Shown here piece after piece: positions 7,256 through 64,000 of a DNA stretch of 64,000 nt. The position numbers and the translations under genes were made by a program. Positions within the stretch are counted from its first letter, which is position 1; every line of letters begins with the position of its first letter. The notes beneath the pieces are model-generated. The model did no database searches and was not told where the DNA came from. It saw nothing but the letters and a program-made list of their open reading frames with translations. This stretch comes from Acidimicrobiales bacterium (GTDB taxonomy: Bacteria; Actinomycetota; Acidimicrobiia; Acidimicrobiales; Bin134), in assembly GCA_965115985.1 (NCBI GenBank), contig OZ220474.1:2396909-2460908 (forward strand), in the 5' to 3' direction.

Positions 7256-7259
7256 GGGA

Positions 7260-7674: not shown

Positions 7675-7828
7675 GCGACCGGCAGCGCTGGTGGGGGCGA
7701 GGGGTCAGCGGGGTTGGGGCGCGCTGGTGGGGGCGAGGGGTCAGCGGCGACCGGCAGCGCTGGTGGGGGCGAGGGGTCAGCGGGGTTGGGGCGCGCTGGT
7801 GGGGGCGAGGGGTCAGCGGGGTTGGGAG
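7675..7828. repeat. 36-bp tandem repeat x4 (72-bp higher order) copying the 3' end and stop of the thiolase-like gene
   Basis: The 26-nt core gcgctggtgggggcgaggggtcagcg occurs at 7685, 7721, 7757 and 7793, with alternating 10-nt linkers. The last core contains the real stop at 7813-7815. Confidence 0.9.
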
Positions 7829-8991: not shown

Positions 8992-10445
8992 GGCGTTCTC
9001 CTACGACCGGGGAGGACCAGTTCGGCCGTTCCGGTCACGTGCGGTCCTCGGCTGTTCAGGCCCTGGAAGGAGACCTCGGCGGTTCCCACTCCATCGACCT
9101 CCTGCTTGGCGGTTACCGACCCCGACAGGGTCATGCAGTCGTAGGGATAGTTGGGGGCACCGAGGCGGATCCTCAGGTTCTTGAGGATGGCGTCGGGACC
9201 GGCCCAGTCACCGATGTAGCGGGCCGAGAGGCCGCTGGACGTCAGGATGTTCATGAATATGTCCTCGGACCCCTTGCGGATCGCCATGTCCCGGTCGTGG
9301 TGGACGTCCTGATAATCGCGTGACGCAATGGCGGTGGACACGATCAACGTGGGGGTGAGCGGGATCGGGCACAGCGGCAGCTCGTCACCCACGTTCACCT
9401 CGTCGAGGGTGAGGGTGGTCGGATTGCGGGGGATCCGGGCGGGCCGGAACATCGGCAGGCTCACGTCCTCGTGGGTCGGCATGTGCCAGACCTCGAGGGG
9501 CATGCCCACCTTGAGCTGTTCCGATCGGCAGTCGGTAATGTTGGTGACCAGGCGGACACCCTCCTCCAGCTCGACCAGTCCGATGTTCAGCGGGTAGTCG
9601 AACGAGGGGACCCGGGGGTGGTGGGCCACCACGTAGGAATAGAGAGTGCCCCTACCGGAGACCACGCGGTACCCCATGGAGGTGGCCCCGCAGGCCGGGC
9701 AGCGGTTACCGGGCGGGTGCTGGAGATACCCGCACTCCCGGCACTGCTGGATTCGCAGCTCACCGACCCGGCTGCCCTCCCAGAAGAAGTCGGTATCCTG
9801 GTTGCGACCGGGGCGGGGGCGCGGCGGCCGCTCGCCGGTGTCGTTGCTGGTGCTACTGCTGCTGGTGCCGCTTTTTCCACTGGTGCTGCCGGCGGTGGCG
9901 CTGCTGCGTCCCGTGCCGGGGCGGAACTTGAGGATGCGGAAGAACATGGATCCGACGTGGCCGCCGTGCTGGTCGTGGTACTCGGCCTCGGTGGTCACGA
10001 AGTGGCCGATGCCCAGGGCGGTTTGCTTCTCGTCCGAGACCTCCACCAGCTTCACGGTTCCGGTGAGGTGGTCGCCGAGCCGGAGATAGCGGTGGTAGAC
10101 GTGCTCGGAGTTGGTGGCCACCACGCCGACGTATCCGGCTTGGTCCAGCATGGCGTACACCCCCGAGGCGGGATCCTGGGGGTCGTCCTCCCGGGGGACC
10201 AGCCCGATCATGGTCCAGGCGTTGAGCATGGCCGGAGGGGCGGTGATCTCCCCGTGGGGGCCCTGGCGAGCGGCGTCGGGATCGGTGTATAGGGGGTTGG
10301 CGTCGTCCATGGCGTCGCACCAGTGGTGGATCATGGGTTGGTTGACCGGATCACGAGCAGTGGTCGGGGTGCCGGTGCGGCCGACCTGTCGACGCAGCTC
10401 GGCTACGAACGCCTCCTTCTGCTCGTCGGTCATCCCATCGCTCAT
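8988..10445 (-). CDS. MaoC_N hotdog - DUF35 (Zn-ribbon/OB) - MaoC hotdog fusion protein
   Basis: CRECGYLQHPPGNRCPACG ribbon plus OB segment sits between two hotdog-like halves. ATG 10445 is preceded by GGGGGGAG. The track start 10577 lies inside the upstream repeat array. Confidence 0.7.
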   Translation of the reverse strand: MSDGMTDEQKEAFVAELRRQVGRTGTPTTARDPVNQPMIHHWCDAMDDANPLYTDPDAARQGPHGEITAPPAMLNAWTMIGLVPREDDPQDPASGVYAMLDQAGYVGVVATNSEHVYHRYLRLGDHLTGTVKLVEVSDEKQTALGIGHFVTTEAEYHDQHGGHVGSMFFRILKFRPGTGRSSATAGSTSGKSGTSSSSTSNDTGERPPRPRPGRNQDTDFFWEGSRVGELRIQQCRECGYLQHPPGNRCPACGATSMGYRVVSGRGTLYSYVVAHHPRVPSFDYPLNIGLVELEEGVRLVTNITDCRSEQLKVGMPLEVWHMPTHEDVSLPMFRPARIPRNPTTLTLDEVNVGDELPLCPIPLTPTLIVSTAIASRDYQDVHHDRDMAIRKGSEDIFMNILTSSGLSARYIGDWAGPDAILKNLRIRLGAPNYPYDCMTLSGSVTAKQEVDGVGTAEVSFQGLNSRGPHVTGTAELVLPGRRRTP

Positions 10446-32126: not shown

Positions 32127-32259
32127 GGGGTTGGTGTTGGGAGGTTGTGGCGAATCGGTCGCAGCGGGGGGCTGGGAGGCTGGTTGTTCAGCGTCTTGGG
32201 GTTGGTGTTGGGGGGTTGTGACGGGTCGGTCGCAGCGGGGGGCTGGGAGGCTGGTTGTT
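32127..32259. repeat. 71-bp-period duplication (62-nt core x2) of the 3' end and stop region of the DUF222-HNH gene
   Basis: ggggttggtgttggg.ggttgtg.....tcggtcgcagcggggggctgggaggctggttgtt occurs at 32127 and 32198. Confidence 0.9.
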
Positions 32260-33534
32260 GTCGGTGGGTTTGGGTGTATGAGGAGATCTCATGACGGACC
32301 GATCGTCCCGGTGGTTGGGGGGTTGACTGTCGCCTGCGGGTTTGGGCGGTTTCTGCCAGGGTGGTCGTAGGTGGTGGCGGCGGGTGTCGGGGTGTTTTTC
32401 GACTTTCCAGTTTTGGTGGTGAATGTTGTGGTGGCAGTCGTGGCAGACCAACACCAAGTTGTTGGCCTGGGTGGGTCCGCCTTTGTGCCAGTGTTCGATG
32501 TGGTGGCTGACGCACCATTCGGGTTGTTTGCCGCAGCCTACGCATCCTTGGTCGCGGGCTACGAGCGTGGCTCGGAGTTGGGGGCTGGGGTGTCGTTGGC
32601 GGCCCAGCGACAGGCATTCGAGGTCGCCGTTGAAGATGCCGGGCAGTATCTCGGCATCGCAGGCGAGTTCGTGGAACTTCTCGGCCGGTAGTGGGGTGCC
32701 GTCGGAGAGGCGGGGCCGACCGAGTTGTTGGTCGATGGTGTCGTAGTCGGCGATGATGACCAGGCTGGTGGGCTGGGGCCGCTCCCGGCTGGTTCCACCA
32801 TCGGCGTGCTCGGTGGTGCGGGTCAACAACTCCGCAATGGCATCGGCCCGACGATGACGAGCATCGAGGCGCTCACGGCCGGTGGTCGCGTACCAGGCCA
32901 TGTCCGTTTTCTGGTTGAGAGCCGCTCGGATGCGCTGCCCGGTCACAGGATCGAACAAGGCGTACAGGCACCACATGCCGTCCTCTTGCTCGCCGAAGGT
33001 GGCCATGCGGGCGTTCCTCTGCCGTTCCAGTCGTTTGGTGCCGTCGTCGCCGACCAACTCGTCTTGATGATCGCGTATCGTGCGGCGGAACTGATCGGGA
33101 GACTCGGTTTCGGCGGCGGCCACCATCTTTTTTTCGTCCAAAGGTCCGGCCTTGGCTGCTCGGCCCAGGATGCGGGCGTGCTCGGAGGTGATACGACTGT
33201 CCACCAACGCGTCACGCGTGGTCGGTAGTTCCTCCAGTTGTTCGGCGTCCTCCAGGATGCGTCGAGCCTTGCGACCCGACTGGCGCAACCCGGCCCTCAG
33301 AGCCTCCTTGGTGTCGTACGCACCGGTGCGGCGGTTCTTCTCGGCCACCGCCTCGGCCAAGAACCCATCCAAACGATTACGGGCACTGCCCAACAGCCGC
33401 AGCCGTGAGTCCAAACCGGCATCGTCCAACCCGGCCACATCCACTGTGTCTATATGCACCCCCGAACCGGCCCCGCCCGTGGGAGCGGGCTGCACCGCTG
33501 CGAGTTTGTCCCTGGTCAGAGGCTTCAAATCCAT
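32188..33534 (-). CDS. DUF222 + HNH endonuclease protein (REP13E12-type family of Actinobacteria)
   Basis: HNH region CVGCGK...HHIEHWHKGGPTQANNLVLVCHDCHHNIH. ATG 33534 lies 7 nt after a TAGACT box. GTG 33540 is also possible. Confidence 0.85.
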   Translation of the reverse strand: MDLKPLTRDKLAAVQPAPTGGAGSGVHIDTVDVAGLDDAGLDSRLRLLGSARNRLDGFLAEAVAEKNRRTGAYDTKEALRAGLRQSGRKARRILEDAEQLEELPTTRDALVDSRITSEHARILGRAAKAGPLDEKKMVAAAETESPDQFRRTIRDHQDELVGDDGTKRLERQRNARMATFGEQEDGMWCLYALFDPVTGQRIRAALNQKTDMAWYATTGRERLDARHRRADAIAELLTRTTEHADGGTSRERPQPTSLVIIADYDTIDQQLGRPRLSDGTPLPAEKFHELACDAEILPGIFNGDLECLSLGRQRHPSPQLRATLVARDQGCVGCGKQPEWCVSHHIEHWHKGGPTQANNLVLVCHDCHHNIHHQNWKVEKHPDTRRHHLRPPWQKPPKPAGDSQPPNHRDDRSVMRSPHTPKPTDNNQPPSPPLRPTRHNPPTPTPRR

Positions 33535-33541
33535 GCCCACC

Positions 33542-33547: not shown

Positions 33548-34175
33548 CCGACACCTGTGACAACATCTACTGTGAGCCCTGGTCACCACGAAAAATTGTT
33601 TATAGATAATTGAAAATAGCTGATACTTGCTAATACCGACTCGGAACTTGAAACCCAACCCGTCGCGACCTCCGTTGAAGTTCATCTTTCCTCACCACCA
33701 CCGAGGTCGAGGATGCACATTGAGTTAAGTGGCCCCTGCCCCCCCTGTCTCACCAAACCGCTCACAGGGAGCCGCAGCGGTTCCCGCTCCGATCACCACC
33801 GACAGCCCGAAACCCTGGAGAAGCCGTCCCTTGCCCCCGCAGGTCACCGCCCCGACCACCACCGCCCTACCAAACCCCCCGCTGACTCACTTCTTGCTTC
33901 CTCGCCAAGCCTGGAACTGCATGTGAGTGTGGGCGATCACGGTGCTCCAGCTAAACTCCGCTTCTTGCGCTCCCCCGACAAACCATGTACCTTCCCCGAT
34001 ATCAGCGACAAAACCCGCGAGACTCGTTCCCTCTGCGGCCAGACCTAGATATGACCGGGCTTCGTTTCTGGTTCTCTCTAAATCTGGCTGCGGGTTGTCG
34101 CTGATACGAAAAGTCCGGCTTATTTGTAGGGAACCACCCTTGATGACTACCACCGACCCCTGCTAAAATGTTCTG

Positions 34176-34481
34176 ATGGTCACCCCACCACCAACGGACG
34201 ATACCACCGAGGCCGACAATAACCCGGCCCCGAACACACCACCACCAATCCAACCACCTACAACCACCAAACAAAAGAGACCTTTCTACCATTTTTGGCG
34301 TATAAACTTGCGCAAAGTTTATAGTACTGTTTTTACTGTTATTATGTTTTTAATACCAGTGACAGCAATTAGAACATTGCATTGGCTTGGCCTTTATTAT
34401 TGGATTAGTTTTATAGTTGGTGTAATTGTTGCAGCATTGGTAGCAATTACGCTTACTAGAATAGAAAATATAAAGAGATAA
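34176..34481 (+). CDS. Small membrane protein, paralog 1 (Pro/Thr-rich N-terminus, 2 TM)
   Basis: PPIQPPTTTKQKRPFYHFW is followed by two hydrophobic segments and a basic tail. Confidence 0.55.
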   Translation: MVTPPPTDDTTEADNNPAPNTPPPIQPPTTTKQKRPFYHFWRINLRKVYSTVFTVIMFLIPVTAIRTLHWLGLYYWISFIVGVIVAALVAITLTRIENIKR

Positions 34482-34571
34482 AATCTTAGAATAAAACTTC
34501 CATGACCATGCAGGGGTCGGTGGTGGTCATCAAGGGTGGTTCCATTAGAGATAATCGAGGGGAATACGAAA

Positions 34572-34724
34572 ATGTTTCGCAAGTGTTTGGTGATTACGGT
34601 TTGCCTTACCGTGTTTGCTACGGTGACTCCGGCGGTGCAGGCTCACGACCTGGAGACTGTGACTAGGACGATCCCGGCGGTCACGCGACATGAACCCATT
34701 TACAAGGATGTCGAAGAAACCTAA
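34572..34724 (+). CDS. Small secreted peptide (50 aa)
   Basis: MFRKCLVITVCLTVFATVTPAVQA signal-like N-terminus. A GAGGGG site lies 8 nt upstream. Confidence 0.4.
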   Translation: MFRKCLVITVCLTVFATVTPAVQAHDLETVTRTIPAVTRHEPIYKDVEET

Positions 34725-34770
34725 AAATTGAGGGTTCCCTATATGGAGACTTACAATTTGAGGGTTGGCC

Positions 34771-34779
34771 GTGGTATAA
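34771..34779 (+). promoter_or_regulatory. Extended -10 element TGgTATAAT
   Basis: tggtataat lies about 26 nt upstream of ATG 34805, with GAGAGGAA between them. Confidence 0.35.
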
Positions 34780-34804
34780 TCCGGCTACTTGAGAGGAACT
34801 GCCT

Positions 34805-35113
34805 ATGACAACCACCAACACTCCAACAATGAACAGCACCCCGGACATACCCCCACCACCAACCTAACCACCCACAACTACCGGACAAAATAAGATATGG
34901 TACAAACCCTCCTGGAGTTCCATTAAATATTATTTTTGGAATTTTATTGCGCTGATTATATCAAATACAGTGTCTAATTTTTTGCCCGAACCTTTTTATA
35001 GTCATCGCTATCTTCTTCTTATAATAGTAGGTTCAGGTACCTTAATTATATTTGGTGCAATTGTACCTGGCGCATTGGTTTGGGCATGGTTGCGGTCAAG
35101 ATACGGTCGATGA
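34805..35113 (+). pseudogene. Small membrane protein, paralog 2, with in-frame TAA at 34865-34867
   Basis: MTTTNTPTMNSTPDIPPPPT*PPTTTGQNKIWYKP...LPEPFYSH... is homologous to the neighbours but interrupted. No in-frame ATG follows the stop. Confidence 0.5.
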
Positions 35114-35412
35114 GGAGCCTAAAAGTAATAATCGAGTAACTATCAAGGGGACTGTTAGTTATGAGAAAGCCTTTTGAATTGGTAGTCCCCTAATCGTGGG
35201 TGAGCAAATGGCGGGGTTCCTATAGCAAGCACGACAATAAACACTACAACTACTAAGCTCTTACGAAGCCTCTTTGTGTTCCTCTCGATTATCTTGAGGG
35301 TAACCACCCTTGACGACCACCACTGACCCCTGCTACATGGCCCCGAAAGCTTTAACGTAACATTTTATCTCATAACTAACAACCCCCTCGATAGTTACTC
35401 GATTACTATTAC

Positions 35413-35862
35413 TTAGACTTTCCGTTGTCTATTCCTAAGCAACATAAATACACTAATGAGTATTATAGCAATACCAAACACTCCAGCAAGTAGAGTAAAA
35501 TCACTAGCAAAAGGTTCAGGTAAATAGCGGGATATCAAAAACGCCAAAAAAATCACTAACCAATGAACTAACGTCCCAATAGGTATTATAATCCAAGAAG
35601 TGCTGCGCTTTCTCTTTAGTTTGGTAGTTGTGGGTGGTGGGGGAATGGTTGGGGCCATGTCGGCATCGGTAGCAACCGGTGGTGCGGCGGTGTTGGCCGA
35701 GGTGTGGTAGGCACCGGTGGCAGTGTCGGCTGGGGTGGCTGGTGATCCGATGTTGGCCATCATAACTCGGTGGCGGGGCTGGGGGTGGCTGTTGAGCCTG
35801 GTTGGCGGCGGGGCCGGGGGTGGTGCAGATTCCCGGCCCTCGTCGGTGGGGGTCTGTTCCAT
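35413..35862 (-). CDS. Small membrane protein, paralog 3 (start uncertain)
   Basis: PPPPTTTKLKRKRSTSW..., LPEPF between two TM segments, and a basic tail RNRQRKV. Confidence 0.55.
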   Translation of the reverse strand: MEQTPTDEGRESAPPPAPPPTRLNSHPQPRHRVMMANIGSPATPADTATGAYHTSANTAAPPVATDADMAPTIPPPPTTTKLKRKRSTSWIIIPIGTLVHWLVIFLAFLISRYLPEPFASDFTLLAGVFGIAIILISVFMLLRNRQRKV

Positions 35863-52133: not shown

Positions 52134-54941
52134 GGCCCCGAACCCCTGGGCCGCAGTGCTCTTGTCGCGGTGGGGCAGTCGGCACCGCAAGCCTGGCAGG
52201 GTTGCCCACGCCTGAGGGTGCGAACCGACCGCTTCGATCCGGCGGTGGGGCGGGAGCTGAGACGAGCGTGGGTGGAACGCACCCCGGTGGTGATCGAACT
52301 GCAAGGCAACCTGCCGGAGGCCGAGCCGGTCATTCATACCCATTGGTGGGAGCTCAATGCCGGTTTGACCATGCCCGCCGAGGTGTTCGGTCATCTCCTC
52401 ACCGCCAACACCGTGGATTGGCGTGATCCCCACCACCCCCGATTCGAGCCCCGGGAGCGAGCGCTGGTGCTGGGAGCCCGCCCGACCGCGGAGGGCGAGC
52501 CCGGTGATGTGGTGACCGCCACCGGACCGATCTGGTGCGACGGCGGGCCGTTCGCGGTGTTCGACCCCGAAGCGCTGGGGGCCGGATCGGTTCCCGCCGT
52601 TCCCGCCGTCAACCTGGCGGCCGGGAGCCTGGTCGCCCCGACCCCGACCCGACCCCGGGCCGACCTGGCCGACGACCAGATGGCCGCGGTGGCCCATCTG
52701 GGCGGCGGTGCCTGCATCGTGGCCCCGGCCGGTTCGGGCAAGACCCGGGTGCTCACCGAACGAGCCCGCTACCTGGTGCGCGACCTCGGCGTCGATCCCC
52801 GAGCCGTCTGCCTGGTGGCGTTCAACGTGCGGGCTCGGGCCGAGATGGCCGAACGCACCGCCGATCTCCCCGGTCTGGAGGTGCGCACGCTCAACAGCCT
52901 GGCCCTGGCGGTAACCAACGGCACCGGCCCGTTCGCCCGCCCCCGCGACCACGGCCGGGTGGAGGTGATCGACGAGCGCAGGGTGCGGGACCTGCTCGAC
53001 GGGATGGTGCCCCGCAAGCGGCGGGCCATGACCGACCAGCTCGCTCCCTGGATCGAGGCTCTGGGCGCGTCCCGGCTGGGTCTGCGGGATCCCGCCGAGG
53101 TGGAGCGCGACTTCCATCCCGATGTGCCCGACTTCTCGGTGATCGCCCCCCGATACGTCGATCTGCTCGACGAACGGGGCCTGGTGGACTTCGACCAGCA
53201 GATCGTTCGGGCCATCGACGTCCTGCTCGGCGACCCCGCGGCTCGGGCCGCGGCCCGGCGGGTGTGCGGCATCCTCTTGGTGGACGAGTTCCAGGATCTC
53301 ACCCCCGCACACCTGCTTTTGGTGCGGCTGCTGGCCGGACCCCGAGCCGATGTGTTCGGGGTGGGCGACGACGACCAGACCATCTACGGCTACTCCGGGG
53401 CGTCCCCGCAGTGGCTGATCGACTACGACAAGTTCTTCCCCGGATCCCGCCGCCACGAACTGCACGTCAACTACCGCTGCCCTCCCGAGGTGGTGGATGC
53501 CGCCTCCAACCTCCTGTCCCACAACCGCCGACGCATCGACAAGCAGATCACCGCGGCTGGGGGCCAAGCCGACCCCGACAATCCCGGCCAGGACCGCCCC
53601 GCCCGTTCCGGCCCGGACCGCCCCACCCCCGACCGCCCCGCCCCCGCCCGCCCCGGCCCGGTTGCACCCATCACCGTCCGGACGGCAGCCTACGGAGCAC
53701 CGGTACTGCGTCGGACCGTCGAATCCCTGCTGAACGCCGGTGTCCATCCCCACCACATCGCCGTTTTGGCTCGGGTGAACAGCACCCTGTTGGTTCCCCA
53801 GATCGTTCTTGGCGAGATGGAGGTGCCGTCCACCCGACCGGTGGGTCACTGGTTCCTGGAGCGCACCGGGGTGGCCGCCGCCCTGGCCTGGCTGGACATC
53901 GCCACCGCCCCGGAGCGGGGCCTGCCCGCCCAGGCCCTGGCCGATGCCGCCCGCCGTCCCCCCCGAGGCATCTCCCCTCGGGTCATCGAATGGATCGCCG
54001 AACAACAAAGCGTCTCGGAGATCAAGGCCCTGGCCCGCCGCATCAAGGACGAACGCTCCTCCCGGAAGGTGAGCGAGTTGGCCGACGATGTCAAGATGCT
54101 GCGGTCGAGGGCTCGCAAGGCCGGTGGTCGGGTCACCACCCGGGCCCTGCTGGAGACGGTGCGCGACGAGATGGGCCTGGGCGGAAGCCTGGACACTCGC
54201 CTGGACGCCTCCCGCCGCTCGGTGGATCGATCGGCCCACGGCGACGATCTACGAGCGCTCATCTCGGTGGCTCATCTGCACCCCGACCCGACCGATTTCA
54301 GGGAGTGGCTGGCCGACAGGCTGCCGGACGCAGGTGGGGGCGACCGGGGTGTCCGGCTGGCCACCGTGCATCGGGTGAAGGGGCTCGAGTGGCCCCACGT
54401 GATTGTCTACGAGGCGTCCAAGGGGCTGATGCCCCATCGCTTGTCGGGAGACCTGGAGGAGGAACGGCGGGTGTTCCACGTGGCCCTCACCCGCTGCTCG
54501 GAATCGGTCACCCTCATCTGCGGCGACCCACCCACCACCTTTCACCAGGAACTACTGACCCGCCACCAACCCCCTCCCGACCCCGACCCGACCACCACCG
54601 CCGACCTGCTCACGCCCCCCATCGTCACCGCCCCCACCCCACTACCCGACTCGCCCCCCAGCAAAACACCCACCAACAAGCCACCCTCACGCTCCAATCC
54701 CCATCCCCCCTCCGACCCCGTCGGCAGCGCCGCATTCGAGGCCCTGAAAGCCTGGAGACGCGAACGCAGCCGAGCCGACGGCGTTCCCGCCTACATCGTG
54801 TTCACCAACGCCACCCTGATGGAACTAGCCACCCACCGCCCCACCACCGACACCGAACTCCTATCCATCCCCGGCATCGGCCCCACCAAACTCACCACCT
54901 ACGGCGAAGACATCAAAAAAGTCCTCACCCAGTTCCACTAA
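52128..54941 (+). CDS. UvrD/Rep-family helicase with ~180-aa N-terminal extension and C-terminal HRDC domain (UvrD2-like)
   Basis: APAGSGKT Walker A, DEFQD, VHRVKGLEW, and a C-terminal AFEALKAWRRERS...IPGIGPTKL HRDC domain after a Pro/Thr-rich linker. Confidence 0.9.
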   Translation: MKGPEPLGRSALVAVGQSAPQAWQGCPRLRVRTDRFDPAVGRELRRAWVERTPVVIELQGNLPEAEPVIHTHWWELNAGLTMPAEVFGHLLTANTVDWRDPHHPRFEPRERALVLGARPTAEGEPGDVVTATGPIWCDGGPFAVFDPEALGAGSVPAVPAVNLAAGSLVAPTPTRPRADLADDQMAAVAHLGGGACIVAPAGSGKTRVLTERARYLVRDLGVDPRAVCLVAFNVRARAEMAERTADLPGLEVRTLNSLALAVTNGTGPFARPRDHGRVEVIDERRVRDLLDGMVPRKRRAMTDQLAPWIEALGASRLGLRDPAEVERDFHPDVPDFSVIAPRYVDLLDERGLVDFDQQIVRAIDVLLGDPAARAAARRVCGILLVDEFQDLTPAHLLLVRLLAGPRADVFGVGDDDQTIYGYSGASPQWLIDYDKFFPGSRRHELHVNYRCPPEVVDAASNLLSHNRRRIDKQITAAGGQADPDNPGQDRPARSGPDRPTPDRPAPARPGPVAPITVRTAAYGAPVLRRTVESLLNAGVHPHHIAVLARVNSTLLVPQIVLGEMEVPSTRPVGHWFLERTGVAAALAWLDIATAPERGLPAQALADAARRPPRGISPRVIEWIAEQQSVSEIKALARRIKDERSSRKVSELADDVKMLRSRARKAGGRVTTRALLETVRDEMGLGGSLDTRLDASRRSVDRSAHGDDLRALISVAHLHPDPTDFREWLADRLPDAGGGDRGVRLATVHRVKGLEWPHVIVYEASKGLMPHRLSGDLEEERRVFHVALTRCSESVTLICGDPPTTFHQELLTRHQPPPDPDPTTTADLLTPPIVTAPTPLPDSPPSKTPTNKPPSRSNPHPPSDPVGSAAFEALKAWRRERSRADGVPAYIVFTNATLMELATHRPTTDTELLSIPGIGPTKLTTYGEDIKKVLTQFH

Positions 54942-54975
54942 CCCTCGGCAAAAATAACTCCCACCGCTCATCGGA
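54654..54975. repeat. Segmental duplication copy 1 (HRDC-coding 3' end plus ~30 nt downstream)
   Basis: About 93% identical by eye to 61868-62172. Confidence 0.85.
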
Positions 54976-55315: not shown

Positions 55316-57469
55316 TCAATTACTGGAATTCCACCGTCCATCCAAGCGCATTGAAGTCAAGCCCCAACATTCTGCTTTCCCAGTTTCCCGGAGGCCACAA
55401 GCATGGTAACCGTGGACTGATACCGATGTGAACCGACCACTGGGTACGTTCGTTATCAAATCTAGGCTCCTCCCGTACACATCTAGGTCACTCCCCCAGC
55501 ACACAATGGTGCCGTTTTCTCTTAGTCCACACGAGAACATAGCCTCTTTGGATGAGGCGATCGCGCTGAATCGACCATCCGGGGGATCTAGCACCCCGGT
55601 AGGGTTTCCATCTGGGTAGTAAACTTTATCATCCCCCCAACAAACCAGGGTACTATCCTCGCGTATACCACATGCATAGAAGAGCCCTGTGGACACTGCA
55701 GTAAACCGTCCTTCTGGTGCGTTCAGTTCCTTGAAAAAGTATTCATAAGTCCTATCATCATCCCGGATAAATGTTGTTGAAATCGCATCTTTTTTCCAGC
55801 ACTCGACTGTCCCATCTTCTCGCAGGCCACAGGTATGAAGGTCGCTCGTAGAAACTTCCATAAACTCGCCGCCAGAGTAATTATATAAAGGCCATAGTGT
55901 ATAGCCATTGGAATTCCAGCATACAATAGTATTGTCGATAGAGACACCACAATACAACCCCAATAAATTACTACTACTACCACTTATAGAGGTGAACTGG
56001 CCCTCAGGCTCATAGAAAGAAGTCTTATTCAAAGCCATACTATAACCATAGTCCCAGCAGCGGATATTTCCATCTATTAGAAGACCGCAACTATCACGAC
56101 GAGTATGAGCAATATCAATAAACTTGCCTTTAGGCATATTTAGTGTTTCCCCCATTCCCCATCCCCAGCACTGGATCGTACCATCGTTACGAATACCGCA
56201 TGTGGAGTTGCCATATCCTGCATGGACACTTTTGAACTGGGAGTCAGGTGCACCAGTCTTCTCAATACTGCACCGGTCACCCTCGGGCCAACCAAGTAGT
56301 TTGAGGTGCCCACAGCCGATGTAAGAAGTTATATTACCACCATAGTTGAAAGTATACGGGCTGCACCCTATACCGTACATGATCGAACAATCTTGTGGGT
56401 GGTCAAGATAAAACACCGAATGTCCAATCTCATGTGCAACTAAAGGAAGATTCCAATATCTATGGCAATCAGCCTTATCCATGCTCAAACGCGAGTTACC
56501 AGACTCACCTCCGTCAGGACAATTAGGTGCAAATACATGACGGTACCAAGGTTCTTCATACCATGGATGGGCACTAATATACCATTCATAAAATGATTCA
56601 GGAGTATAAACCACTGCATACTTTCCATAACTCGCGTAGCCTGCCGCACCACCCCCTGGGGCTGCATCAACTAATATTAACAAATTGTTGTAGTCTCCTA
56701 AATCTTGGATTGCAGTAAGACATGGCTTACCTTCTAACTTACTAAGGCCGCCTATAGTCAAACCTTTCCATTCTATATTTGGTGAAACAATTCCTCCATA
56801 AATGAATTCAAGGCTTACTAGGTTAGATGATTGCTTAGCGTAGAAAGTAGACACTACATCATTCAATCTAGCTATATCATGATTGATATATATATCTGTG
56901 TATCGCTGACTATCAGGCACACAGTAGAACACTGTAATATCTACCTTACCTGTGAAAGGCACTGGTGAGAGTGGGAGGGTCAATGGTGAGCTGTATAGCC
57001 ACCGGCCGGTGGGAGCATCAAGGGGGAAATAGCGGACCTGGGGCAAGAGGTGACCACCCCATGTGTTATCAACTCGACCCAACTGAAGGGCGAACTCAGT
57101 CCTGCCACTGATCAGCCTGCGAGCTGCAATACGGACGGTTCCAGTTTCAATAGTAAGCGGTGAACTGGATAGCCACCAGTCGATGGAGGTGGAAGTAGGG
57201 AAGTAACGAGTGCTGGGCAAGAGGCGGTCACCCCAAGTGTTATCGAGCTGACGTAACTGAGCGGCAAACTCAATTCTACCGTCACTCAATTTGCGGGCCG
57301 CGATACGTACCTCCAACTCATCGTCATCACCAATCAGTTCCTGTGCAGTGGCTTCGGAAGAAACAACCACCAAGCCCACCGCTATCGACACCACCACCAA
57401 ACCGACACCCACCAGACTCCTCCACCATTGTCGAATTGGAGAGGAAGGGGAGAGGAGGGGAGGGTTCAT
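55316..57469 (-). CDS. Secreted multidomain protein: 2 N-terminal ~55-aa modules + HExxH metalloprotease-like domain + degenerate RCC1-like repeats
   Basis: Signal/TM region WWRSLVGVGLVVVSIAVGLVVVSS, VAHEIGHSVFYLDHP, and seven C(G/W)-type blades (CGIRNDGTIQCWG ... ACGLRETGKAECWG). The gene is A+T-rich. Confidence 0.75.
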   Translation of the reverse strand: MNPPLLSPSSPIRQWWRSLVGVGLVVVSIAVGLVVVSSEATAQELIGDDDELEVRIAARKLSDGRIEFAAQLRQLDNTWGDRLLPSTRYFPTSTSIDWWLSSSPLTIETGTVRIAARRLISGRTEFALQLGRVDNTWGGHLLPQVRYFPLDAPTGRWLYSSPLTLPLSPVPFTGKVDITVFYCVPDSQRYTDIYINHDIARLNDVVSTFYAKQSSNLVSLEFIYGGIVSPNIEWKGLTIGGLSKLEGKPCLTAIQDLGDYNNLLILVDAAPGGGAAGYASYGKYAVVYTPESFYEWYISAHPWYEEPWYRHVFAPNCPDGGESGNSRLSMDKADCHRYWNLPLVAHEIGHSVFYLDHPQDCSIMYGIGCSPYTFNYGGNITSYIGCGHLKLLGWPEGDRCSIEKTGAPDSQFKSVHAGYGNSTCGIRNDGTIQCWGWGMGETLNMPKGKFIDIAHTRRDSCGLLIDGNIRCWDYGYSMALNKTSFYEPEGQFTSISGSSSNLLGLYCGVSIDNTIVCWNSNGYTLWPLYNYSGGEFMEVSTSDLHTCGLREDGTVECWKKDAISTTFIRDDDRTYEYFFKELNAPEGRFTAVSTGLFYACGIREDSTLVCWGDDKVYYPDGNPTGVLDPPDGRFSAIASSKEAMFSCGLRENGTIVCWGSDLDVYGRSLDLITNVPSGRFTSVSVHGYHACGLRETGKAECWGLTSMRLDGRWNSSN

Positions 57470-57519
57470 CTTTAAAGATTATACTTAGGACATCGGGATT
57501 GCAACTGTAACACGGCGTT

Positions 57520-58400
57520 TGTGTGCAGATAAGTGTTTTCGGATCGAGGCGATAGTCAAGTTGGAGTGCTTGATGTCCGAGATCGTTCGGCGGTCGGGTC
57601 GGAACCGCTCCGCGGTGTGACGGGAGTTAGCCCGCAAAGGTCGACGACCGTGCCGAACCCGATCACTGGGAGAGCAATCTATTGGCAAGCTCTATTGGTG
57701 GTCGCGACAGAGTTCATTGTAGATGGTTTGGGCTGTTCGCCAGTTGCGGGGGTTTGCGGGGCATGGTGTCGGGCTGGTCCTCGATGATGGCGAGGCGTAC
57801 CGGGTTGATATCCAGGTCGGTCGATTTGAGCACCCAGCGTCTTATCTGTTCGTTGGTGGCTCGCTGCCAGGGCGAGCGCGCCTCGCAGAAATAGACCTCG
57901 ATACCCAGGGCGTTTTCGATGTCGGCCCATTGGGCCATCTCGGTGCCCTGGTCCCAGGTCAAAGTCTTGACCATGGCCGACGGTTGGCGACCCAGCACCG
58001 CGGTGGCGGCTCGTGCGGTGCTGTTGGTGTCGTAGCCGTCGGGCAACGCCACCAACAGGGTATGGCGGCTGGTTCTTTCCACCAGGGAGATAATGGCCGT
58101 CCGGTTGTTCCGGCCGATGATCAGATCGCCCTCCCAGTGGCCCGCCTCGCAGCGGTCGTCGACCTCGACGGGTCGCTCGGTCAAGCACCGGTAGTCGCCC
58201 AGCACGGAGCGTTCGTTGCGGGCGACCTCCCGCCACACCGCCGAGCGGCTCCGACCCAACCGCCGCGTAACCTCGGCCACAGAGAGCCCCAACCCGACCA
58301 TCGCCTCGATCCGAAACCGCTCACCCGCACCCAAACGCCGTGCCATAATAGAAACCTCCACCGGTTGATTGCCGACACTTCTAACCGGCCATTATGGCCG
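57520..58400. mobile_element. IS30-family debris (two fragments in opposite orientation)
   Basis: ORF 57714..58361 (-) has an HTH (LSVAEVTRRLGRSRSAVWREVARN) joined directly to a partial DDE core (HWEGDLI, TWDQGTEM), too short for an intact IS30 transposase. 57590-57660 (+) reads SEIVRRSGRNRSAV*RELARKG, a second broken HTH fragment. Confidence 0.7.
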
Positions 58401-58692
58401 ACCCGTCGCAACCACCAGTGGAGTTCAACGACTGTTGCTTTGAAGCTCACGCTGGCAAGTTGCCACCCACCACAGGATAAAGGTCGGCTGGGTCTCTACA
58501 GGTGTCAACCACAACGACTAAACTCCTTTGCCCTGACCAGCACAGCCACCCTAGGTTTGCTCCAACACATCAGTACCCTTCACCTTTATCGCGGCTACAG
58601 GAGCGAACCCTAGCACCTAATCTGCCTGGACCACAGCATCAATGATGTCGTCCGAACTCCCAACGACCGTCCAGCAAAAACGCCTCCTACGC

Positions 58693-60588
58693 TCAGCCAA
58701 GTCGTAGGTTGAGGTTGCCGTTGCCCCAGCAGGTGATGGTGCCGTCGATGCGCAGCTTGCACGAATGCGACCCGCCGGCGGATACCGCGGCGAATCGGAT
58801 GTCGGGTGCCTCCGCCCGCCCGTGGTCGTTGTCGCCCCAGCAGGTGATCGTGCCATCGGTGCGCAGCCCGCACGAATGCGATCCGCCGGCGGATACTGCG
58901 GTGAATTGCCCGCCGGGTGCTACTACCTGCCCGTGGTCGTTGTCGCCCCAGCAGGTGATCGTGCCGTTGGTGCGCAAACCACAAGAATGCGATCCGCCGG
59001 CGGATACCGCGGTGAATTGCCCGCCGGGTGCCTCCGCCCGCCTGGAGTCGTTGTCGCCCCAGCAGGTGATCGTGCCGTTGGTGCGCAAACCACAAGAATG
59101 CGATCCGCCGGCGGATACCGCGGTGAATTGCCCGCCGGGTGCCTCCGCCCGCCCGGAGCCGTTGTAGCCCCAGCAGGTGATCGTGCCGTTGGTGCGCAAA
59201 CCACAAGAGTGCGATCCGCCGGCGGATACCGCGGTGAACTGTCCGTCCGGTGCCTCCGCCTGCCCGTAGCCGTTGTTGCCCCAGCAGGTGATCGTGCCAT
59301 CGGTGCGCAAACCGCACGAATGCTCGCCGCCGGCGGATACCGCGGTGAATTGCCCGCCGGGTGCCTCCGCCCGCCCGTTGTTGCGCCAGCAGGTGATCGT
59401 GCCATCGGTGCGCAAACCGCACGAATGCGATCCGCCGGCGGATACCGCGGCGAACTGTCCATCCGGTGCCTCCGCCCGCCCGTAGCCGTTGTCGCCCCAG
59501 CAGGTGATCGTGCCGTTGATGCGCGCACCGCACGAATGCGATCCGCCGGCGGATACCGCGGCGAATCGGATGTCGGGTGCCTCCGCCCGTCCGTGGTCGT
59601 TGTCGCCCCAGCAGGTGATCGTGCCATCGGTGCGCAGCCCGCACGAATGCGATCCGCCGGCGGATACTGCGGTGAATTGCCCGCCGGGTGCTACTACCTG
59701 CCCGTGGTCGTTGTCGCCCCAGCAGGTGATCGTGCCGTTGGTGCGCAAACCACAAGAATGCGATCCGCCGGCGGATACCGCGGTGAATTGCCCGCCGGGT
59801 GCCTCCGCCCGCCTGGAGTCGTTGTAGCCCCAGCAGGTGATCGTGCCGTTGGTGCGCAAACCACAAGAATGCGATCCGCCGGCGGATACCGCGGCGAACT
59901 GCCCGTCCGGTGCCTCCGCCCGCCCGTAGCCGTTGTCGCCCCAGCAGGTGATCGTGCCATCGGTGCGCAAACCACAAGAATGCGGTCCGCCGGCGGATAC
60001 CGCGGCGAACTGCCCGTCCGGTGCCTCCGCCCGCCCGTAGCCGTTGTCGCCCCAGCAGGTGATCGTGCCATCGGTGCGCAAACCGCACGAATGCTCGCCG
60101 CCGGCGGATACCGCGGCGAACTGCCCGTCCGGTGCCTCCGCCTGCCCGTAGCCGTTGTTGCCCCAGCAGGTGATCGTGCCATCGGTGCGCAAACCGCACG
60201 AATGCTCGCCGCCGGCGGATACCGCGGTGAACTGTTCTGCCGTGACTCGTTCTGGGTTGGGGGTAGGTGTGGGTTGGAGGGTGAGGGGGGAGCTGTTGAG
60301 CCATTGGCCGGTGGAGGCGGTGGTGGGGAAGTAGCGCTTGTCGGGTAGGAGGCGGTCGCTCCATGTGTTGTCGGGCTGGCGGGTTTGGAGGGCGAACTCG
60401 ATCCTGCCGCTGTTCAATTTGCGGGCGGTGATTCGTACTTCCCGCGTACCATCATCAGCAGTCTGGGTTTGGGTGGCTACAGTGGGAGCAACGGCTGTGA
60501 CCCCTACTGAGATTGCCAGTATCACCGCGCTGGCCCACACCAACGATTTTACTTTTTTCTTGCCCATTTTTACTTTTCCCCTGTCCAT
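58693..60588 (-). CDS. Secreted RCC1-like repeat protein (one N-terminal module + 14 x 37-aa blades)
   Basis: Signal/TM region KSLVWASAVILAISVGVTAVA. The unit GQFTAVSAGGSHSCGLRTDGTITCWGDNGYGRAEAPD is 111 bp. Alternative start at 60567. Confidence 0.85.
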   Translation of the reverse strand: MDRGKVKMGKKKVKSLVWASAVILAISVGVTAVAPTVATQTQTADDGTREVRITARKLNSGRIEFALQTRQPDNTWSDRLLPDKRYFPTTASTGQWLNSSPLTLQPTPTPNPERVTAEQFTAVSAGGEHSCGLRTDGTITCWGNNGYGQAEAPDGQFAAVSAGGEHSCGLRTDGTITCWGDNGYGRAEAPDGQFAAVSAGGPHSCGLRTDGTITCWGDNGYGRAEAPDGQFAAVSAGGSHSCGLRTNGTITCWGYNDSRRAEAPGGQFTAVSAGGSHSCGLRTNGTITCWGDNDHGQVVAPGGQFTAVSAGGSHSCGLRTDGTITCWGDNDHGRAEAPDIRFAAVSAGGSHSCGARINGTITCWGDNGYGRAEAPDGQFAAVSAGGSHSCGLRTDGTITCWRNNGRAEAPGGQFTAVSAGGEHSCGLRTDGTITCWGNNGYGQAEAPDGQFTAVSAGGSHSCGLRTNGTITCWGYNGSGRAEAPGGQFTAVSAGGSHSCGLRTNGTITCWGDNDSRRAEAPGGQFTAVSAGGSHSCGLRTNGTITCWGDNDHGQVVAPGGQFTAVSAGGSHSCGLRTDGTITCWGDNDHGRAEAPDIRFAAVSAGGSHSCKLRIDGTITCWGNGNLNLRLG

Positions 60589-60590
60589 TT

Positions 60591-61118
60591 CTAGCCCTTG
60601 TAGCTTTCACCGAAACTTTTGCCTGGGAAGCCTCCGGATTCGGTATCGTCCTTGTTGCCGTCGGAAAACCCGTCCTCGTATCCATCCTCGAATGCGTTCT
60701 TCATATCCTCCAACGTGTTAATGCTGATCCCGTTTAGGCACGCTATGTAACCCAGCCTGTAACCGTAATCATTGTTTCTGGCTGGATCTTCATCCTTGCA
60801 ATCTTTGTGGCCATCTTCGATGTCATCCATACCGCCCAAATCATACATAAAGCTGTCTGCACTGTCGTGATCGAAGTTGTTTGAGTACCAGCCATCGTCG
60901 TAGCCTTCGTTGTAGCCATATCCGTAGCCGATCTCTTTGGCCAAACCCCCGGCTCCTCCCCCTCCGCAAGCAGTGGCCAGAGCCACTACAAAAAGAACGA
61001 TGATCGCCAGCGGCTTGTATGCCGTGGTGGCATGGTTGCCCGCGACCCCGGTGTCCGGCTCCGAGGCTGGAGCGTCCCATTCTCTCGTGTCCACCGATTC
61101 GCGTCCCTGCTCTGACAT
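60591..61118 (-). CDS. Acidic Gly/Tyr/Asp-rich lipoprotein
   Basis: TM and lipobox IIVLFVVALATAC. Its stop is 2 nt from the start of the RCC1 gene. Confidence 0.65.
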   Translation of the reverse strand: MSEQGRESVDTREWDAPASEPDTGVAGNHATTAYKPLAIIVLFVVALATACGGGGAGGLAKEIGYGYGYNEGYDDGWYSNNFDHDSADSFMYDLGGMDDIEDGHKDCKDEDPARNNDYGYRLGYIACLNGISINTLEDMKNAFEDGYEDGFSDGNKDDTESGGFPGKSFGESYKG

Positions 61119-61197
61119 GATCTTGTACCTGTCCTTCCCCCCTGGAAAGTCAGCAAACTTCCCAAGTCCCGGTTGAATGCAGTGCTATCAGATTGCA

Positions 61198-61226
61198 GTT
61201 CTACCCCCCCCCCCCCCCCGTGTCAA
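61198..61226 (-). promoter_or_regulatory. Inverted twin of the TTGACA-c-G16-TAG element
   Basis: Plus strand ctaC16gtgtcaag (C run 61204-61219). On the minus strand this reads TTGACA-c-G16-TAGAAC, about 80 nt upstream of ATG 61118. Confidence 0.35.
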
Positions 61227-61345
61227 GCCTTAGGGCAGAGAAATCCAAAAAATCCAGGAACGATCCGGACTGCCTGGCCAGCGGGGGTGAACCCGCCGGC
61301 GGGCTACTGCCCCGGGCACCCTCGTCGGCACCCCGGTGCCGGAGG

Positions 61346-61852
61346 CTAGACCCGAGCCAGCGTCTCCCGGGCGGCGGTGGCGATGCCGGCGGGGTCGAGG
61401 CCGCAGTGGGCGAGGATTTGGTCGGGTTTGCCGTGGGCGATGTACTGGTTGGGCACGCCGAGCACTCGGATGGGGGGTACGGGGCCGTGGTGGCCGCGGT
61501 GGGCCAGGTGGTCGGCGATGGAGCTGCCGGCTCCGCCGTCGCGCCAGCCGTCCTCGATGGTCACCACCGCGCGGTGGGCGGCGGCGTCGGCCAGCATGTC
61601 GGGGTCTAGCGGCTTGACGCAGCGGACGTCCCACACGGTGGCCGATACGTCGTCGGCGGCCAGCAGATCGGCGGCTTCTGTGGCGGCGGCCAGCATCTTG
61701 CCCACGGCCAGCAGGCACACGTCGGTGCCCGACCGGGCCTTGCGTCCCCGCAGGCCGTAGCCCACCTGGTCGTCGGGCACCGAGGGGGCCGCGGTCTTGG
61801 CCCAACGCAGGGCCACCGGGCCGGTGGTGACCTCCAGGGCGTCGTGGAGCAT
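61346..61852 (-). pseudogene. dxs: 3' fragment (last ~168 codons) of 1-deoxy-D-xylulose-5-phosphate synthase
   Basis: It matches only the transketolase C-terminal domain of DXS (LLAVGKM..., VWDVRCVKPLD, TIEDG). An in-frame stop lies 13 codons upstream of the first Met, and homology ends at ~61853. Confidence 0.75.
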
Positions 61853-61867
61853 CTGCCCCCACCACCC

Positions 61868-62172
61868 GCGCCCCCCAAAAAGCCACCCTCACGCTCCAAC
61901 CCTCGTTCCCCCACCGATCCCGTCGGCAGCGCCGCGTTCGAGGCCCTGAAAGCCTGGAGGCGCGAACGCAGCCGAGCCGACGGCGTTCCCGCCTACATCG
62001 TGTTCACCAACGCCACCCTGATGGAGCTGGCCACCCACCGTCCCACCACCGACACCGAACTCCTGTCCATTCCCGGCATCGGCCCCACCAAACTCACCAC
62101 CTACGGCGAAGACATCAAAAAAATCCTCACCCAGTTCCACTAACCCCCGGCAAAAATGCCTTCCACGCTTAC
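61868..62172. repeat. Segmental duplication copy 2: orphan HRDC-coding fragment (track ORF 61844..62143)
   Basis: It encodes ...DPVGSAAFEALKAWRRERSRADGVPAYIVFTNATLMELATHRPTTDTELLSIPGIGPTKLTTYGEDIKKILTQFH, differing at about 3 residues from the helicase C-terminus. No helicase core precedes it. Confidence 0.85.
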
Positions 62173-64000
62173 CCAGAACCTCTGCCAAGGTACCAGCAGG
62201 TGATGGTGCCATCCGTGCGCACACCACACGAACGCACGCCCGAAAGATGTTGTTCATGGCCGCCAACGGACACTGCGGTGAACTGTCCATCCGGTGTCGC
62301 CTGTCCGTACTCGTCACTGTAGCCCCAGCAAGTTACCGTGCCATTGGTGCGCAGACCACATGAATTCGATCCGCTGGCGGATACTGCGGTGAACTGTCCA
62401 TCTGGAGCATCCGCCTGACCGTAGGCGTTGTCACCCCAGCAGGTGATGGTGCCGTCGGTGCGCAGACCACACGGGGACTCGCCGCCGGTGGATACTGCGG
62501 TGAATTGTCCGTCGGGAGCATCCGCCTGACCGTAGGCGTTGTCACCCCAGCAGGTGATGGTGCCGTCGGTGCGCAGACCACACGGGGACTCGCCGCCGGT
62601 GGATACTGCGGTGAATTGTCCGTCGGGTGCCTCTGTTTGACCAGATAAGTTCTTGCCCCAGCAGGTGATGGTGCTGTTGGTGCGCAGGCCGCATGAATGC
62701 CAGCGGCCAGTGGATACTGCGGTGAACTGTCCATCTGGAGCATCCGCCTGACCGTAGGCGTTGCCGCCCCAGCAGGTGATGGTGCCGTCGGTGCGCAGGC
62801 CGCACGAATGACCCCAGCCAACGGTTATTGCGGTGAATTGTCCGTCGGGTGCCTCTGCCTGCCCGCTCTCGTTGTTGCCCCAGCAGGTGATGGTGCCGTC
62901 GGTGCGCAGACCGCACAAATGATCGGGACTGGCGGTTATTGCGGTGAATTGTCCGTCGGGTGCCTCTGCCTGCCCGCTCTCGTTGCCGCCCCAGCAGGTG
63001 ATGGTGTCGTTGGTGCGCAGGCCGCATGAATGCCCGTTGCCGGTGGATACTGCGGTGAATTGTCCGTCGGGAGCATCCGCCTGACCGAGATAATCTCCTT
63101 GCCAGTCGTTGTTGTTGCCCCAGCAGGTGATGGTGCCGTTGGTGCGCAGCCCGCACGAATGGTTGCCGCCGGCGGATACTGCGGTGAATTGCCCGTCGGG
63201 TGCCTCTGTTTGACCAGATAAGTTCTTGCCCCAGCAGGTGATGGTGCCGTTGGTGCGCAGCCCGCACGAATGGTTGCCGCCGGCGGATACTGCGGTGAAT
63301 TGTCCATCTGGAGCATCCGCCTGCCCTTGGTAGTTGTTGCCCCAGCAGGTGATGGTGCTGTTGGTGCGCAGACCACACGGGGACTCGCCGCCGGCGGATA
63401 CTGCGGTGAATTGTCCGTCGGGAGCATCCACCTGGCCGCTCCCGTAGCCGCCCCAGCAGGTGATGGTGTCGTTGGTGCGCAGACCACATGAATGCCCGTT
63501 GCCGGCGGATACTGCGGTGAATTGTCCGTCGGGAGCATCCGTCTGCCCTTGGTAGTTGTTGCCCCAGCAGGTGATGGTGTCGTTGGTGCGCAGGCCGCAT
63601 GAATGCCCGTTGCCGGCGGATACTGCGGTGAATTGTCCATCTGGAGCATCCGCCTGCCAGCTGCTGCCCCAGCAGGTGATGGTGCCGTTGGTGCGCAGGC
63701 CGCACGAATGGCTACCGCCGGCGGATACTGCGGTGAATTGGTTTTGGTTGGGGGCCGGTGTGGGTTGGAGGGTGAGTGGTGAGCTTGTGAGCCACCGGCC
63801 TGTAGGAGCGGTGGTGGGGAAGTAGCGCTTGTCGGGCAGCAAACGGCTACCCCATGCGTTATCGGCCTCGCGAGGTTGAAGGGCGAACTCAACCCTGCCG
63901 CTGTTCAGTTTGCGAGCCATGATGCGTGCTGTGCTGGTTTTTAGGGTGAGTGGGGAGCTGGTGAGCCAGCGGCCGGTGGGTGCGGTGGTGGGGAAGTAGC
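62169..64000 (-). CDS. RCC1-like repeat surface protein, 5' partial (continues beyond window)
   Basis: About 14 blades (34-41 aa) are preceded by at least two N-terminal modules. The frame stays open through 63921-64000 (YFPTTAPTGRWLTSSPLTLKTSTARI before the track Met). Confidence 0.85.
   Translation of the reverse strand, partial: YFPTTAPTGRWLTSSPLTLKTSTARIMARKLNSGRVEFALQPREADNAWGSRLLPDKRYFPTTAPTGRWLTSSPLTLQPTPAPNQNQFTAVSAGGSHSCGLRTNGTITCWGSSWQADAPDGQFTAVSAGNGHSCGLRTNDTITCWGNNYQGQTDAPDGQFTAVSAGNGHSCGLRTNDTITCWGGYGSGQVDAPDGQFTAVSAGGESPCGLRTNSTITCWGNNYQGQADAPDGQFTAVSAGGNHSCGLRTNGTITCWGKNLSGQTEAPDGQFTAVSAGGNHSCGLRTNGTITCWGNNNDWQGDYLGQADAPDGQFTAVSTGNGHSCGLRTNDTITCWGGNESGQAEAPDGQFTAITASPDHLCGLRTDGTITCWGNNESGQAEAPDGQFTAITVGWGHSCGLRTDGTITCWGGNAYGQADAPDGQFTAVSTGRWHSCGLRTNSTITCWGKNLSGQTEAPDGQFTAVSTGGESPCGLRTDGTITCWGDNAYGQADAPDGQFTAVSTGGESPCGLRTDGTITCWGDNAYGQADAPDGQFTAVSASGSNSCGLRTNGTVTCWGYSDEYGQATPDGQFTAVSVGGHEQHLSGVRSCGVRTDGTITCWYLGRGSG

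Follow-up and report, generated by a model that had tools for sequence, protein, structure and literature searches.

Introduction

The wall anchors of monoderm bacteria, the SLH, LysM, GW/SH3b, CWB2, and choline-binding repeats, are small tandem modules located at the N or C terminus of secreted proteins, and one type serves many payloads per genome, including wall amidases, proteases, and adhesins. Here we describe a module with the same architecture that occurs in three predicted exported proteins, p1, p2, and p3, encoded on a 64,000-nucleotide stretch of DNA from an Acidimicrobiales bacterium (contig OZ220474.1, positions 2,396,909 to 2,460,908; hereafter the window). This module matches none of these anchors, in sequence by Pfam scan or in fold by Foldseek, and it is predicted to be a five-stranded β unit that pairs.

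The module proteins also share both their organisms and their payload classes with the eukaryote-like repeat proteins of sponge symbionts (ANK, LRR, TPR, WD40, cadherin, and fn3). These repeat classes are reported to be enriched and laterally transferred in sponge symbionts, where they have been tied to host attachment, and lateral transfer of such proteins between phyla has been reported (PMC8163846; PMC11706023). The secretion systems on which other symbioses rely are missing from most sponge metagenome-assembled genomes (MAGs) (Robbins et al., PMC8163846). The sponge-symbiont studies count Pfam classes, whereas a shared terminal module, undetectable by Pfam, is not mentioned in them (PMC8163846; PMC11706023).

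The other parts of the window proteins resemble two known families. The C-terminal parts of p1–p3 are genuine members of the bacterial RCC1_2/RCC1-like propellers (PF13540, PF25390) and carry the C..G..C-W-G signature, but their blades are short (37 residues) with two cysteines each, they occur in exported proteins, and the N-terminal module that precedes them is unrelated to the blades. The middle domain of p1 has, like the metzincins (reprolysin/M12B, serralysin and matrixin/M10, and fragilysin), an HExxH motif and a further His/Asp, and a downstream SIMY resembles a Met-turn in pattern; its spacing, HExxHxxxxxDH, is one residue longer and has Phe in place of Gly.

Results

Three Window Proteins Share a 54-Residue Module

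The list of open reading frames (ORFs) in the window contains three long genes, all on the minus strand. p1 (55316..57469, 717 residues) comprises a putative signal peptide, two modules, an HExxH domain that looks metzincin-like, and seven RCC1_2 blades. p2 (58693..60588, 631 residues) has a putative signal peptide, one module, and 14 blades. p3 (62169..>64000), the 5′ end of which lies beyond the window and the frame of which is open up to the last base, contains at least 1.35 modules and 14 blades. A hidden Markov model (HMM) of the four complete module copies, searched against the whole 64 kb translated in six frames, located five copies, confined to these proteins. The two copies in p1 lie at 57149..57310 (residues 54–107, E = 2.5e-35) and 56975..57136 (residues 112–165, E = 1.4e-34), the single copy in p2 at 60277..60438 (residues 51–104, E = 9e-37), and the full copy in p3 at 63768..63929 (E = 6.9e-36); the final 19 residues of an upstream p3 copy are found at 63942..63998 (E = 1.3e-8), where the window edge cuts it. 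No further copies were found in this translation, the next-best matches having E > 3. The full copies, with E values of the order of 1e-35 to 1e-37, are 54 residues long and have 28 invariant positions in common. A reading made from the letters of the window (the sequence-only reading) had given the same positions and copy numbers, together with a consensus that proved essentially right. It had also placed the module after the signal region and ahead of the repeat domain in every case, which holds for p1 and p2; the N terminus of p3 is beyond the window.

Judged by eye, p1 and p2 begin with signal-like stretches that are basic, then hydrophobic, then AxA-type (…SSEATA|QE and …APTVA|TQ, respectively). 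The region in p1 covers residues 1–43 (57341..57469) and includes the hydrophobic segment VGVGLVVVSIAVGLVVVSS followed by EATA|QE. Neither a sortase motif nor a C-terminal transmembrane segment was seen in the three window proteins. A surface location for p1–p3 is suggested by signal peptides that look Sec-like and by the absence of another anchor. An exact-sequence lookup of p2 returned no record.

The Module Is a Candidate New Domain with a Predicted All-β Fold

Whole-protein scans of p1–p3 against Pfam-A (2025 models) and NCBIfam 20.0 at E ≤ 1 left the module uncovered, and isolated modules gave zero matches in the same libraries at E ≤ 10. Zero matches were also obtained when the module profile was compared with all PDB chain sequences at E ≤ 10, and a PADLOC scan gave no match to the module. 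Module-only proteins have an empty entry (“-”) in precomputed Pfam annotation and no name beyond “hypothetical protein,” and core peptides of the module were absent from the papers found by literature search. The sequence-only reading had been unable to assign the module to a family; it stays unassigned, since none of these libraries, nor the Foldseek comparison described below, provided a confident match to a described domain. On sequence grounds, we regard the module as a family undescribed in the searched libraries and as well worth considering for a domain entry of its own.

The consensus of 514 copies from other organisms is xEVRIxARRLADGRxEFALQQRxxDGxWGERxLPRxRFFPAxAxVGRWLxSSPLTV, with a net charge of ~+2. 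Five positions (R4, E16, F17, R37, and W48) are conserved in at least 95% of copies and five more (A7, W28, P34, P40, and S51) in 91–94%.

AlphaFold2, supplied with a 46-sequence alignment of module pairs, produced a confident all-β model of the p1 pair (mean pLDDT 94.5, pTM 0.87). The high pTM means that the way in which the two copies lie against each other is confidently predicted as well. In each module, the five predicted strands are the two of a long β-hairpin (~10 and ~8 residues), a third one, and two that are short. Copy 1 ends in a strand that continues directly into the first strand of copy 2. When the pair was compared with PDB and BFVD using Foldseek, no match at E ≤ 1e-3 was found and TM scores were 0.35 or less; the weak top matches include Kelch blades and 5-bladed propellers. 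The predicted fold is probably new.

The Module Is Usually Paired and Terminal

A 10-sequence profile was searched exhaustively with HMMER against 1.84 billion cluster representatives. At E ≤ 1e-3 it identified 1,590 module-bearing clusters, of which 1,191 also passed E ≤ 1e-10 and 339 passed E ≤ 1e-30. A word-indexed search with four module copies, which is insensitive for a 55-residue query, returned only six short matches. These six and the 150 best-scoring HMMER matches make up the 156 proteins that were retrieved. Most have two copies of the module (138 proteins), and the others have four (10), three (4), one (3), or five (1), in a sample where the whole-protein score ranking of the 150 best matches favors multi-copy proteins. 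At the reference-genome loci, two copies per ORF again predominate (75 ORFs), followed by one (21), four (7), and three (1). The dominance of even copy numbers and the high pTM of the model suggest that the tandem pair is the folding and functional unit of the module, a unit that the single-copy p2 might reconstitute by dimerizing.

Within the top 150 proteins, the module is N-terminal in 135, C-terminal (30 residues or less from the end) in 13, and internal in 2. The N-terminal modules start at a median of residue 41.5. The heads that precede them contain a hydrophobic stretch of 11 or more residues in 118 of 120 cases, and many end in AxA|Q; no lipobox was found in the heads inspected. By inspection, C-terminal-module proteins with complete N termini have Sec-like signals too.

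One gene on a 1.7-Mb contig (L001:7900-9000), encoding a signal peptide, two modules, and RCC1 repeats, is split by a frameshift in the second module, and retrieved protein P0004 is its 5′ piece. Either the gene is a pseudogene, or the frameshift is an indel error of long-read sequencing.

The Module Is Joined to Many Unrelated Domains

The sequence-only reading had raised the question of whether the module always co-occurs with RCC1 blades. It does not: RCC1-like repeats are present in only 37 of the 156 retrieved proteins and RCC1_2 in only 16 of the 81 module proteins from GTDB reference genomes. For the other 97 proteins, a Pfam census gave LRR (17), trypsin-like peptidases (8), SLH (4), ankyrin (3), and cadherin (3), as well as PPC, PD40, fn3, CAP, and Big_12. 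The 81 genome-derived proteins included LRR (15), trypsin-like peptidases (11), animal haem peroxidase (4), cadherin, and Calx-beta, and one (L035:5707-7143) has an OpuAC substrate-binding domain. Another of them, at L007:7153-8430, joins a module pair to an Amidase_3 N-acetylmuramoyl-L-alanine amidase. SLH domains accompany the module in P0111 and P0156, and several further types of HExxH peptidase are found among the module proteins. Giant, adhesin-like proteins with C-terminal modules contain cadherin, Calx-beta, fn3, Big_9, and Spondin_N domains.

Module genes often form paralog arrays (three at L003, four at L007, and three each at L025 and L057). The array at L007:5842-10385, in an Acidimicrobiales MAG, consists of three adjacent module genes and a fragment, a clustering that resembles the window; one of its genes (9033-10385) encodes a module pair and an RCC1 propeller. 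Proteins of 701 residues with a signal peptide, a module pair, and an animal-type haem peroxidase are encoded at 5713-7815 of each of three loci from Acidimicrobiia MAGs (L045, L064, and L070). The census contains four carriers of An_peroxidase (best E = 3e-154), and a search for the peroxidase motif indicates the ORFs at these three loci. The peroxidase is an uncommon payload for the module, an enzyme of eukaryote-like type.

About 20 short matches consist of a signal peptide, a module pair, an acidic linker, and a thioredoxin-like start. About 20 module proteins all finish at “...GETPLLFWLWSPY” (L082:6001-7038, P0157, P0176, P0177, P0181-P0193, P0196, P0198, and P0200). The stop codon at L082 is TGA, and the frame goes on, as “U-GIC QSHAPAIEQF...”, for ~98 codons further. 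In sequence, this extension resembles a thioredoxin fold of the TlpA/redoxin type that carries a U-x-x-C motif, and it is possible that proteins of this type are exported selenoproteins truncated by gene callers. A hairpin lies ~10 nt past the TGA, with an unexceptional folding energy (z = −1.6).

Carriers Appear to Be Mainly Sponge Bacteria

A scan of one genome per species (185,579 species) confirmed 159 loci. The 80 of them that were listed are all from MAGs, mostly of Dehalococcoidia/Chloroflexi and Acidimicrobiales/Acidimicrobiia; three belong to the Acidimicrobiales genus Candidatus Poriferisocius, one (L032) to a Gemmatimonadetes bin, and a few to unclassified bins. The bin names SB06xx, IRC4, COS4, and APA, like the genus name, are ones that we take to denote marine-sponge metagenomes, and the carriers appear to be mainly marine-sponge bacteria. 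The closest relatives of the window among the listed loci are Acidimicrobiales; the best module match is at L002, and the RCC1 DNA of the window is 74% identical to that of L031. The window's own genome is absent from the GTDB loci. From these relatives and its G+C content of 65%, the window is probably part of an Acidimicrobiia genome associated with sponges. Lateral transfer among sponge-associated Dehalococcoidia and Acidimicrobiia appears to account for the spread of the module family.

Clustering of the neighboring genes at the 80 loci gave one other large cluster (59 loci, 157 members), none of whose members has the module and whose contents were not inspected. We assume that its members are shadow ORFs, antisense to the repeat genes.

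The C-Terminal Parts of p1–p3 Are RCC1_2 Propellers

RCC1_2 (PF13540) was detected in all three window proteins with scores well above the cut-off of 22 bits (63.5 in p1, 428.8 in p2, and 340.4 in p3), which confirms the earlier description of these regions as RCC1_2-like blades. The arrays extend over 55319..56209 in p1 (E = 1.3e-17), 58726..60198 in p2 (E = 1.8e-132), and 62193..63704 in p3 (E = 1.1e-104). A motif count gave 14 blades each in p2 and p3 and six in p1, where a seventh was recognized by eye. The numbers are all multiples of seven, equivalent to a single propeller in p1 and two apiece in p2 and p3. The blades repeat with a 111-nt period, and the two cysteines in each suit an exported protein. 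The idea that the module is itself a degenerate RCC1 blade was rejected, as hhalign comparison of the module and blade profiles gave a probability of ~1% over three aligned columns.

Long ORFs in other frames or on the opposite strand overlie the RCC1 arrays (58610-60364, 58765-60348, 62542-63705, 62936-63892, and others). These are shadow frames of the GC-rich 111-nt repeat and not genes.

The Middle Domain of p1 Is Possibly Metzincin-Like

As the sequence-only reading had noted, one paralog has an HExxH domain between its modules and its blades. In p1, this putative zinc peptidase domain covers residues ~170–420 (56210..56962), with the sequence HEIGHSVFYLDH from residue 346; the motif itself is HEIGH (residues 346–350, 56420-56434), and SIMY follows just downstream. 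Only two relatives of the domain were detectable, one of which was returned by the word-indexed search. The first, P0264, has HEIGHLLFDLNH, then SIM, and RCC1 blades after it, and the second, an ORF at the Ca. Poriferisocius locus L004, has HELGHSLFGLGH, then SLM. The SIMY, SIM, and SLM sequences follow the zinc motif at a distance of 5 to ~20 residues, and their resemblance to a Met-turn is one of pattern only. In all three proteins, the candidate for the third ligand is located one residue beyond the HExxHxxGxxH/D spacing, with Phe for Gly.

A profile of the three sequences matched only metzincins, all below threshold. The best match in PDB was snake-venom reprolysin (6x5x, E = 0.0054), and serralysin PrtC, fragilysin, and matrix metalloproteinases were also found; in Pfam, Reprolysin_5 (E = 0.0012) and Peptidase_M10 (E = 0.057) were likewise below threshold. 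An AlphaFold2 model of the p1 domain, built with two sequences, had a pLDDT of 30 and was unusable. At most, the domain can be described from its sequence as metzincin-like.

The Window Locus Has Been Rearranged

The p1 gene has a G+C content of 47% (44% at third codon positions), compared with 65% for the window. Between p1 and p2, a domain scan identified a truncated IS30-type transposase gene (rve and HTH_38; 57714..58361, minus strand). Given the low G+C content and the adjacent IS30 fragment, p1 was probably acquired recently by horizontal transfer. No run labelled as RNA turned up for p1. A single contig of public run X1 includes p1 at a depth equal to that of its flanks, and run X2 contains a p1 ortholog that is ~96–97% identical, with in-frame indels of 3, 3, and 15 nt. 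These data indicate that the p1 island is real and not an assembly chimera.

A 296-nt copy of the 3′ end (HRDC domain) of a UvrD-type helicase gene is present at 61871..62166 (plus strand; 93% identical to 54669-54964). It lies just downstream of p3, 7.2 kb from the original, and the domain scan placed a Transketolase_C gene fragment at 61346-61852. The helicase-end copy and the Transketolase_C fragment are remnants of a segmental rearrangement that separated p3 from the helicase gene. The original arrangement was probably one in which the helicase gene and p3 converged, and the 7.2-kb rearrangement would have inserted p1 and p2 together with the IS fragment, a small lipoprotein-like ORF, and the Transketolase_C fragment.

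The lipoprotein-like ORF (60591-61118, minus strand, 175 residues) stops 2 nt short of the start codon of p2. Its hydrophobic segment, which finishes with the lipobox-like …LATAC, is followed by a Gly-rich and Asp/Gly/Tyr-rich low-complexity region, and the ORF gave no Pfam match. It may be a lipoprotein that is co-translated with p2. Elsewhere in the window, a second island of low G+C content (34000-35500, 42–46%) contains only small ORFs that look membrane-embedded and is unrelated to the module. A 450-residue ORF with an HNH-type Cys/His motif (…CHDCHHNIH…) adjoins it at 32188-33540.

Discussion

Taken as an explanation of the whole, the proposal that the module is a new domain family serving as a terminal handle for retention or attachment on the envelope of the producer is the one we favor, if tentatively and somewhat short of an even chance. 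The module would be an autonomous extracytoplasmic all-β domain, most likely working as a tandem pair. It would occupy one end of a secreted protein, either the mature N terminus behind the Sec signal or, less often, the extreme C terminus, and would be joined to many unrelated payloads, dozens per genome. In the window, these payloads would be one or two seven-bladed RCC1-like propellers, joined in p1 by a metzincin-like peptidase. The pair would hold the exported proteins non-covalently on the producer's own cell envelope, a role comparable to that of SLH, LysM, GW/SH3b, or CWB repeats, from which it differs in sequence and predicted fold. We arrive at this reading because the module is small, duplicated, terminal, located behind a signal peptide, and common to unrelated exported payloads.

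The nature of some payloads bears on where the handle would act. Three are of a type that normally functions at the cell's own envelope: the muramoyl-alanine amidase at L007, the OpuAC solute-binding protein at L035, and the TlpA-like redoxin at L082. In amidases, solute-binding proteins, and TlpA elsewhere, the place taken here by the module is occupied by a wall-binding domain or by a lipid or transmembrane anchor. With no lipobox in the heads inspected and neither a sortase motif nor a C-terminal transmembrane segment in the window proteins, nothing else would retain the proteins. The Dehalococcoidia and Acidimicrobiia lineages are monoderm, and their exported proteins must be retained without an outer membrane. 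Non-covalent retention on the envelope is favored because these are the main carrier lineages and unretained exported proteins would be lost.

Several observations weigh against such a handle. SLH is an accepted wall anchor, and in the two proteins that have SLH domains (P0111 and P0156), the module may do something else. One carrier, L032, was binned to Gemmatimonadetes, a diderm phylum. Many of the payloads are eukaryote-like repeats or adhesin domains and would equally fit a host-directed role. The net charge of the module is too small to constitute a strong signature for binding anionic wall polymers. No neighboring gene, for example for polymer synthesis or sorting, recurs across the 80 loci, and no ABC-transporter operon surrounds the OpuAC fusion gene. 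The sponge origin of most of the MAGs is read from recognized names, not from metadata. Finally, both the anchoring function and its ligand are inferred.

In a form that gives more weight to ecology, the new fold would be a niche-specific handle for surface display or attachment, passed laterally between the unrelated phyla Chloroflexota and Actinomycetota, and would be the shared device that keeps exported eukaryote-like repeat proteins, proteases, and adhesins at the interface between symbiont and sponge. We consider this possible, and put it forward with reserve.

The most serious competing explanation, which we nevertheless think rather unlikely, is that the module pair binds a ligand of the host or the environment, such as a glycan or protein of the sponge matrix, and forms an adhesive tip. 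The distribution of the module tracks habitat across two or three phyla and not phylogeny, and the fusions to LRR, Ank, RCC1, cadherin, fn3, Calx-beta, and Spondin_N are to classes described in sponge symbionts (PMC8163846; PMC11706023). The conserved residues F17, W28, F38/39, W48, R4, R14, R31, and R37 resemble glycan-binding surfaces, and the presence of SLH in two proteins would free the module for another ligand. However, amidase, OpuAC, and TlpA-like payloads gain little from binding to a host, and most carriers would be left without a means of staying on the cell.

It is quite improbable that the module serves purely as a unit of oligomerization or scaffolding, in which pairs fold together, single-copy proteins of the p2 type dimerize, and payloads become multivalent. 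The prevalence of even copy numbers fits this, as does the AlphaFold2 model, in which two copies pack as one body (pTM 0.87), and single-copy proteins do exist (p2 and 21 of 104 locus ORFs). Such a role leaves the terminal placement beside a signal peptide, across dozens of payloads per genome, unexplained, and it is in any case compatible with anchoring rather than exclusive of it.

A role in export, whether as a pro-domain, as an intramolecular chaperone, or as a tag recognized by dedicated machinery for secretion or sorting, would explain why the module directly follows the signal peptide in some 90% of proteins, and many sponge MAGs lack classical secretion systems yet encode eukaryote-like repeats (PMC8163846). 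We judge this very improbable: the module is also found at the extreme C terminus and occasionally internally, it is predicted to be a stably folded, duplicated 55-residue domain instead of a short tag, Sec signals are already there, and no conserved gene for a sorting enzyme is located nearby at the 80 loci. That the module is a known element that has diverged beyond recognition, such as a degenerate RCC1 or Kelch blade or a known wall-binding repeat, is scarcely credible, for although the weak Foldseek matches include Kelch blades and the module adjoins propellers in the window, the hhalign probability against RCC1 blades is ~1%, most carriers have no propeller, no PDB fold matches at E ≤ 1e-3 (TM 0.35 or less), and profile searches of Pfam, NCBIfam, and PDB were empty even at E ≤ 10.

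Three window genes that would otherwise be “hypothetical” can now be read as encoding a signal peptide, a putative handle, and a propeller, with a putative peptidase in addition in p1. More widely, the module offers a sequence handle for cataloguing an exported repertoire of uncultured sponge bacteria that is invisible to Pfam surveys. The pair is small, predicted to fold well, and expected to express easily, which makes it a testable candidate for the anchoring or attachment step. If the surface-handle reading is true, it would bear on how symbionts present such proteins without classical effector secretion systems.

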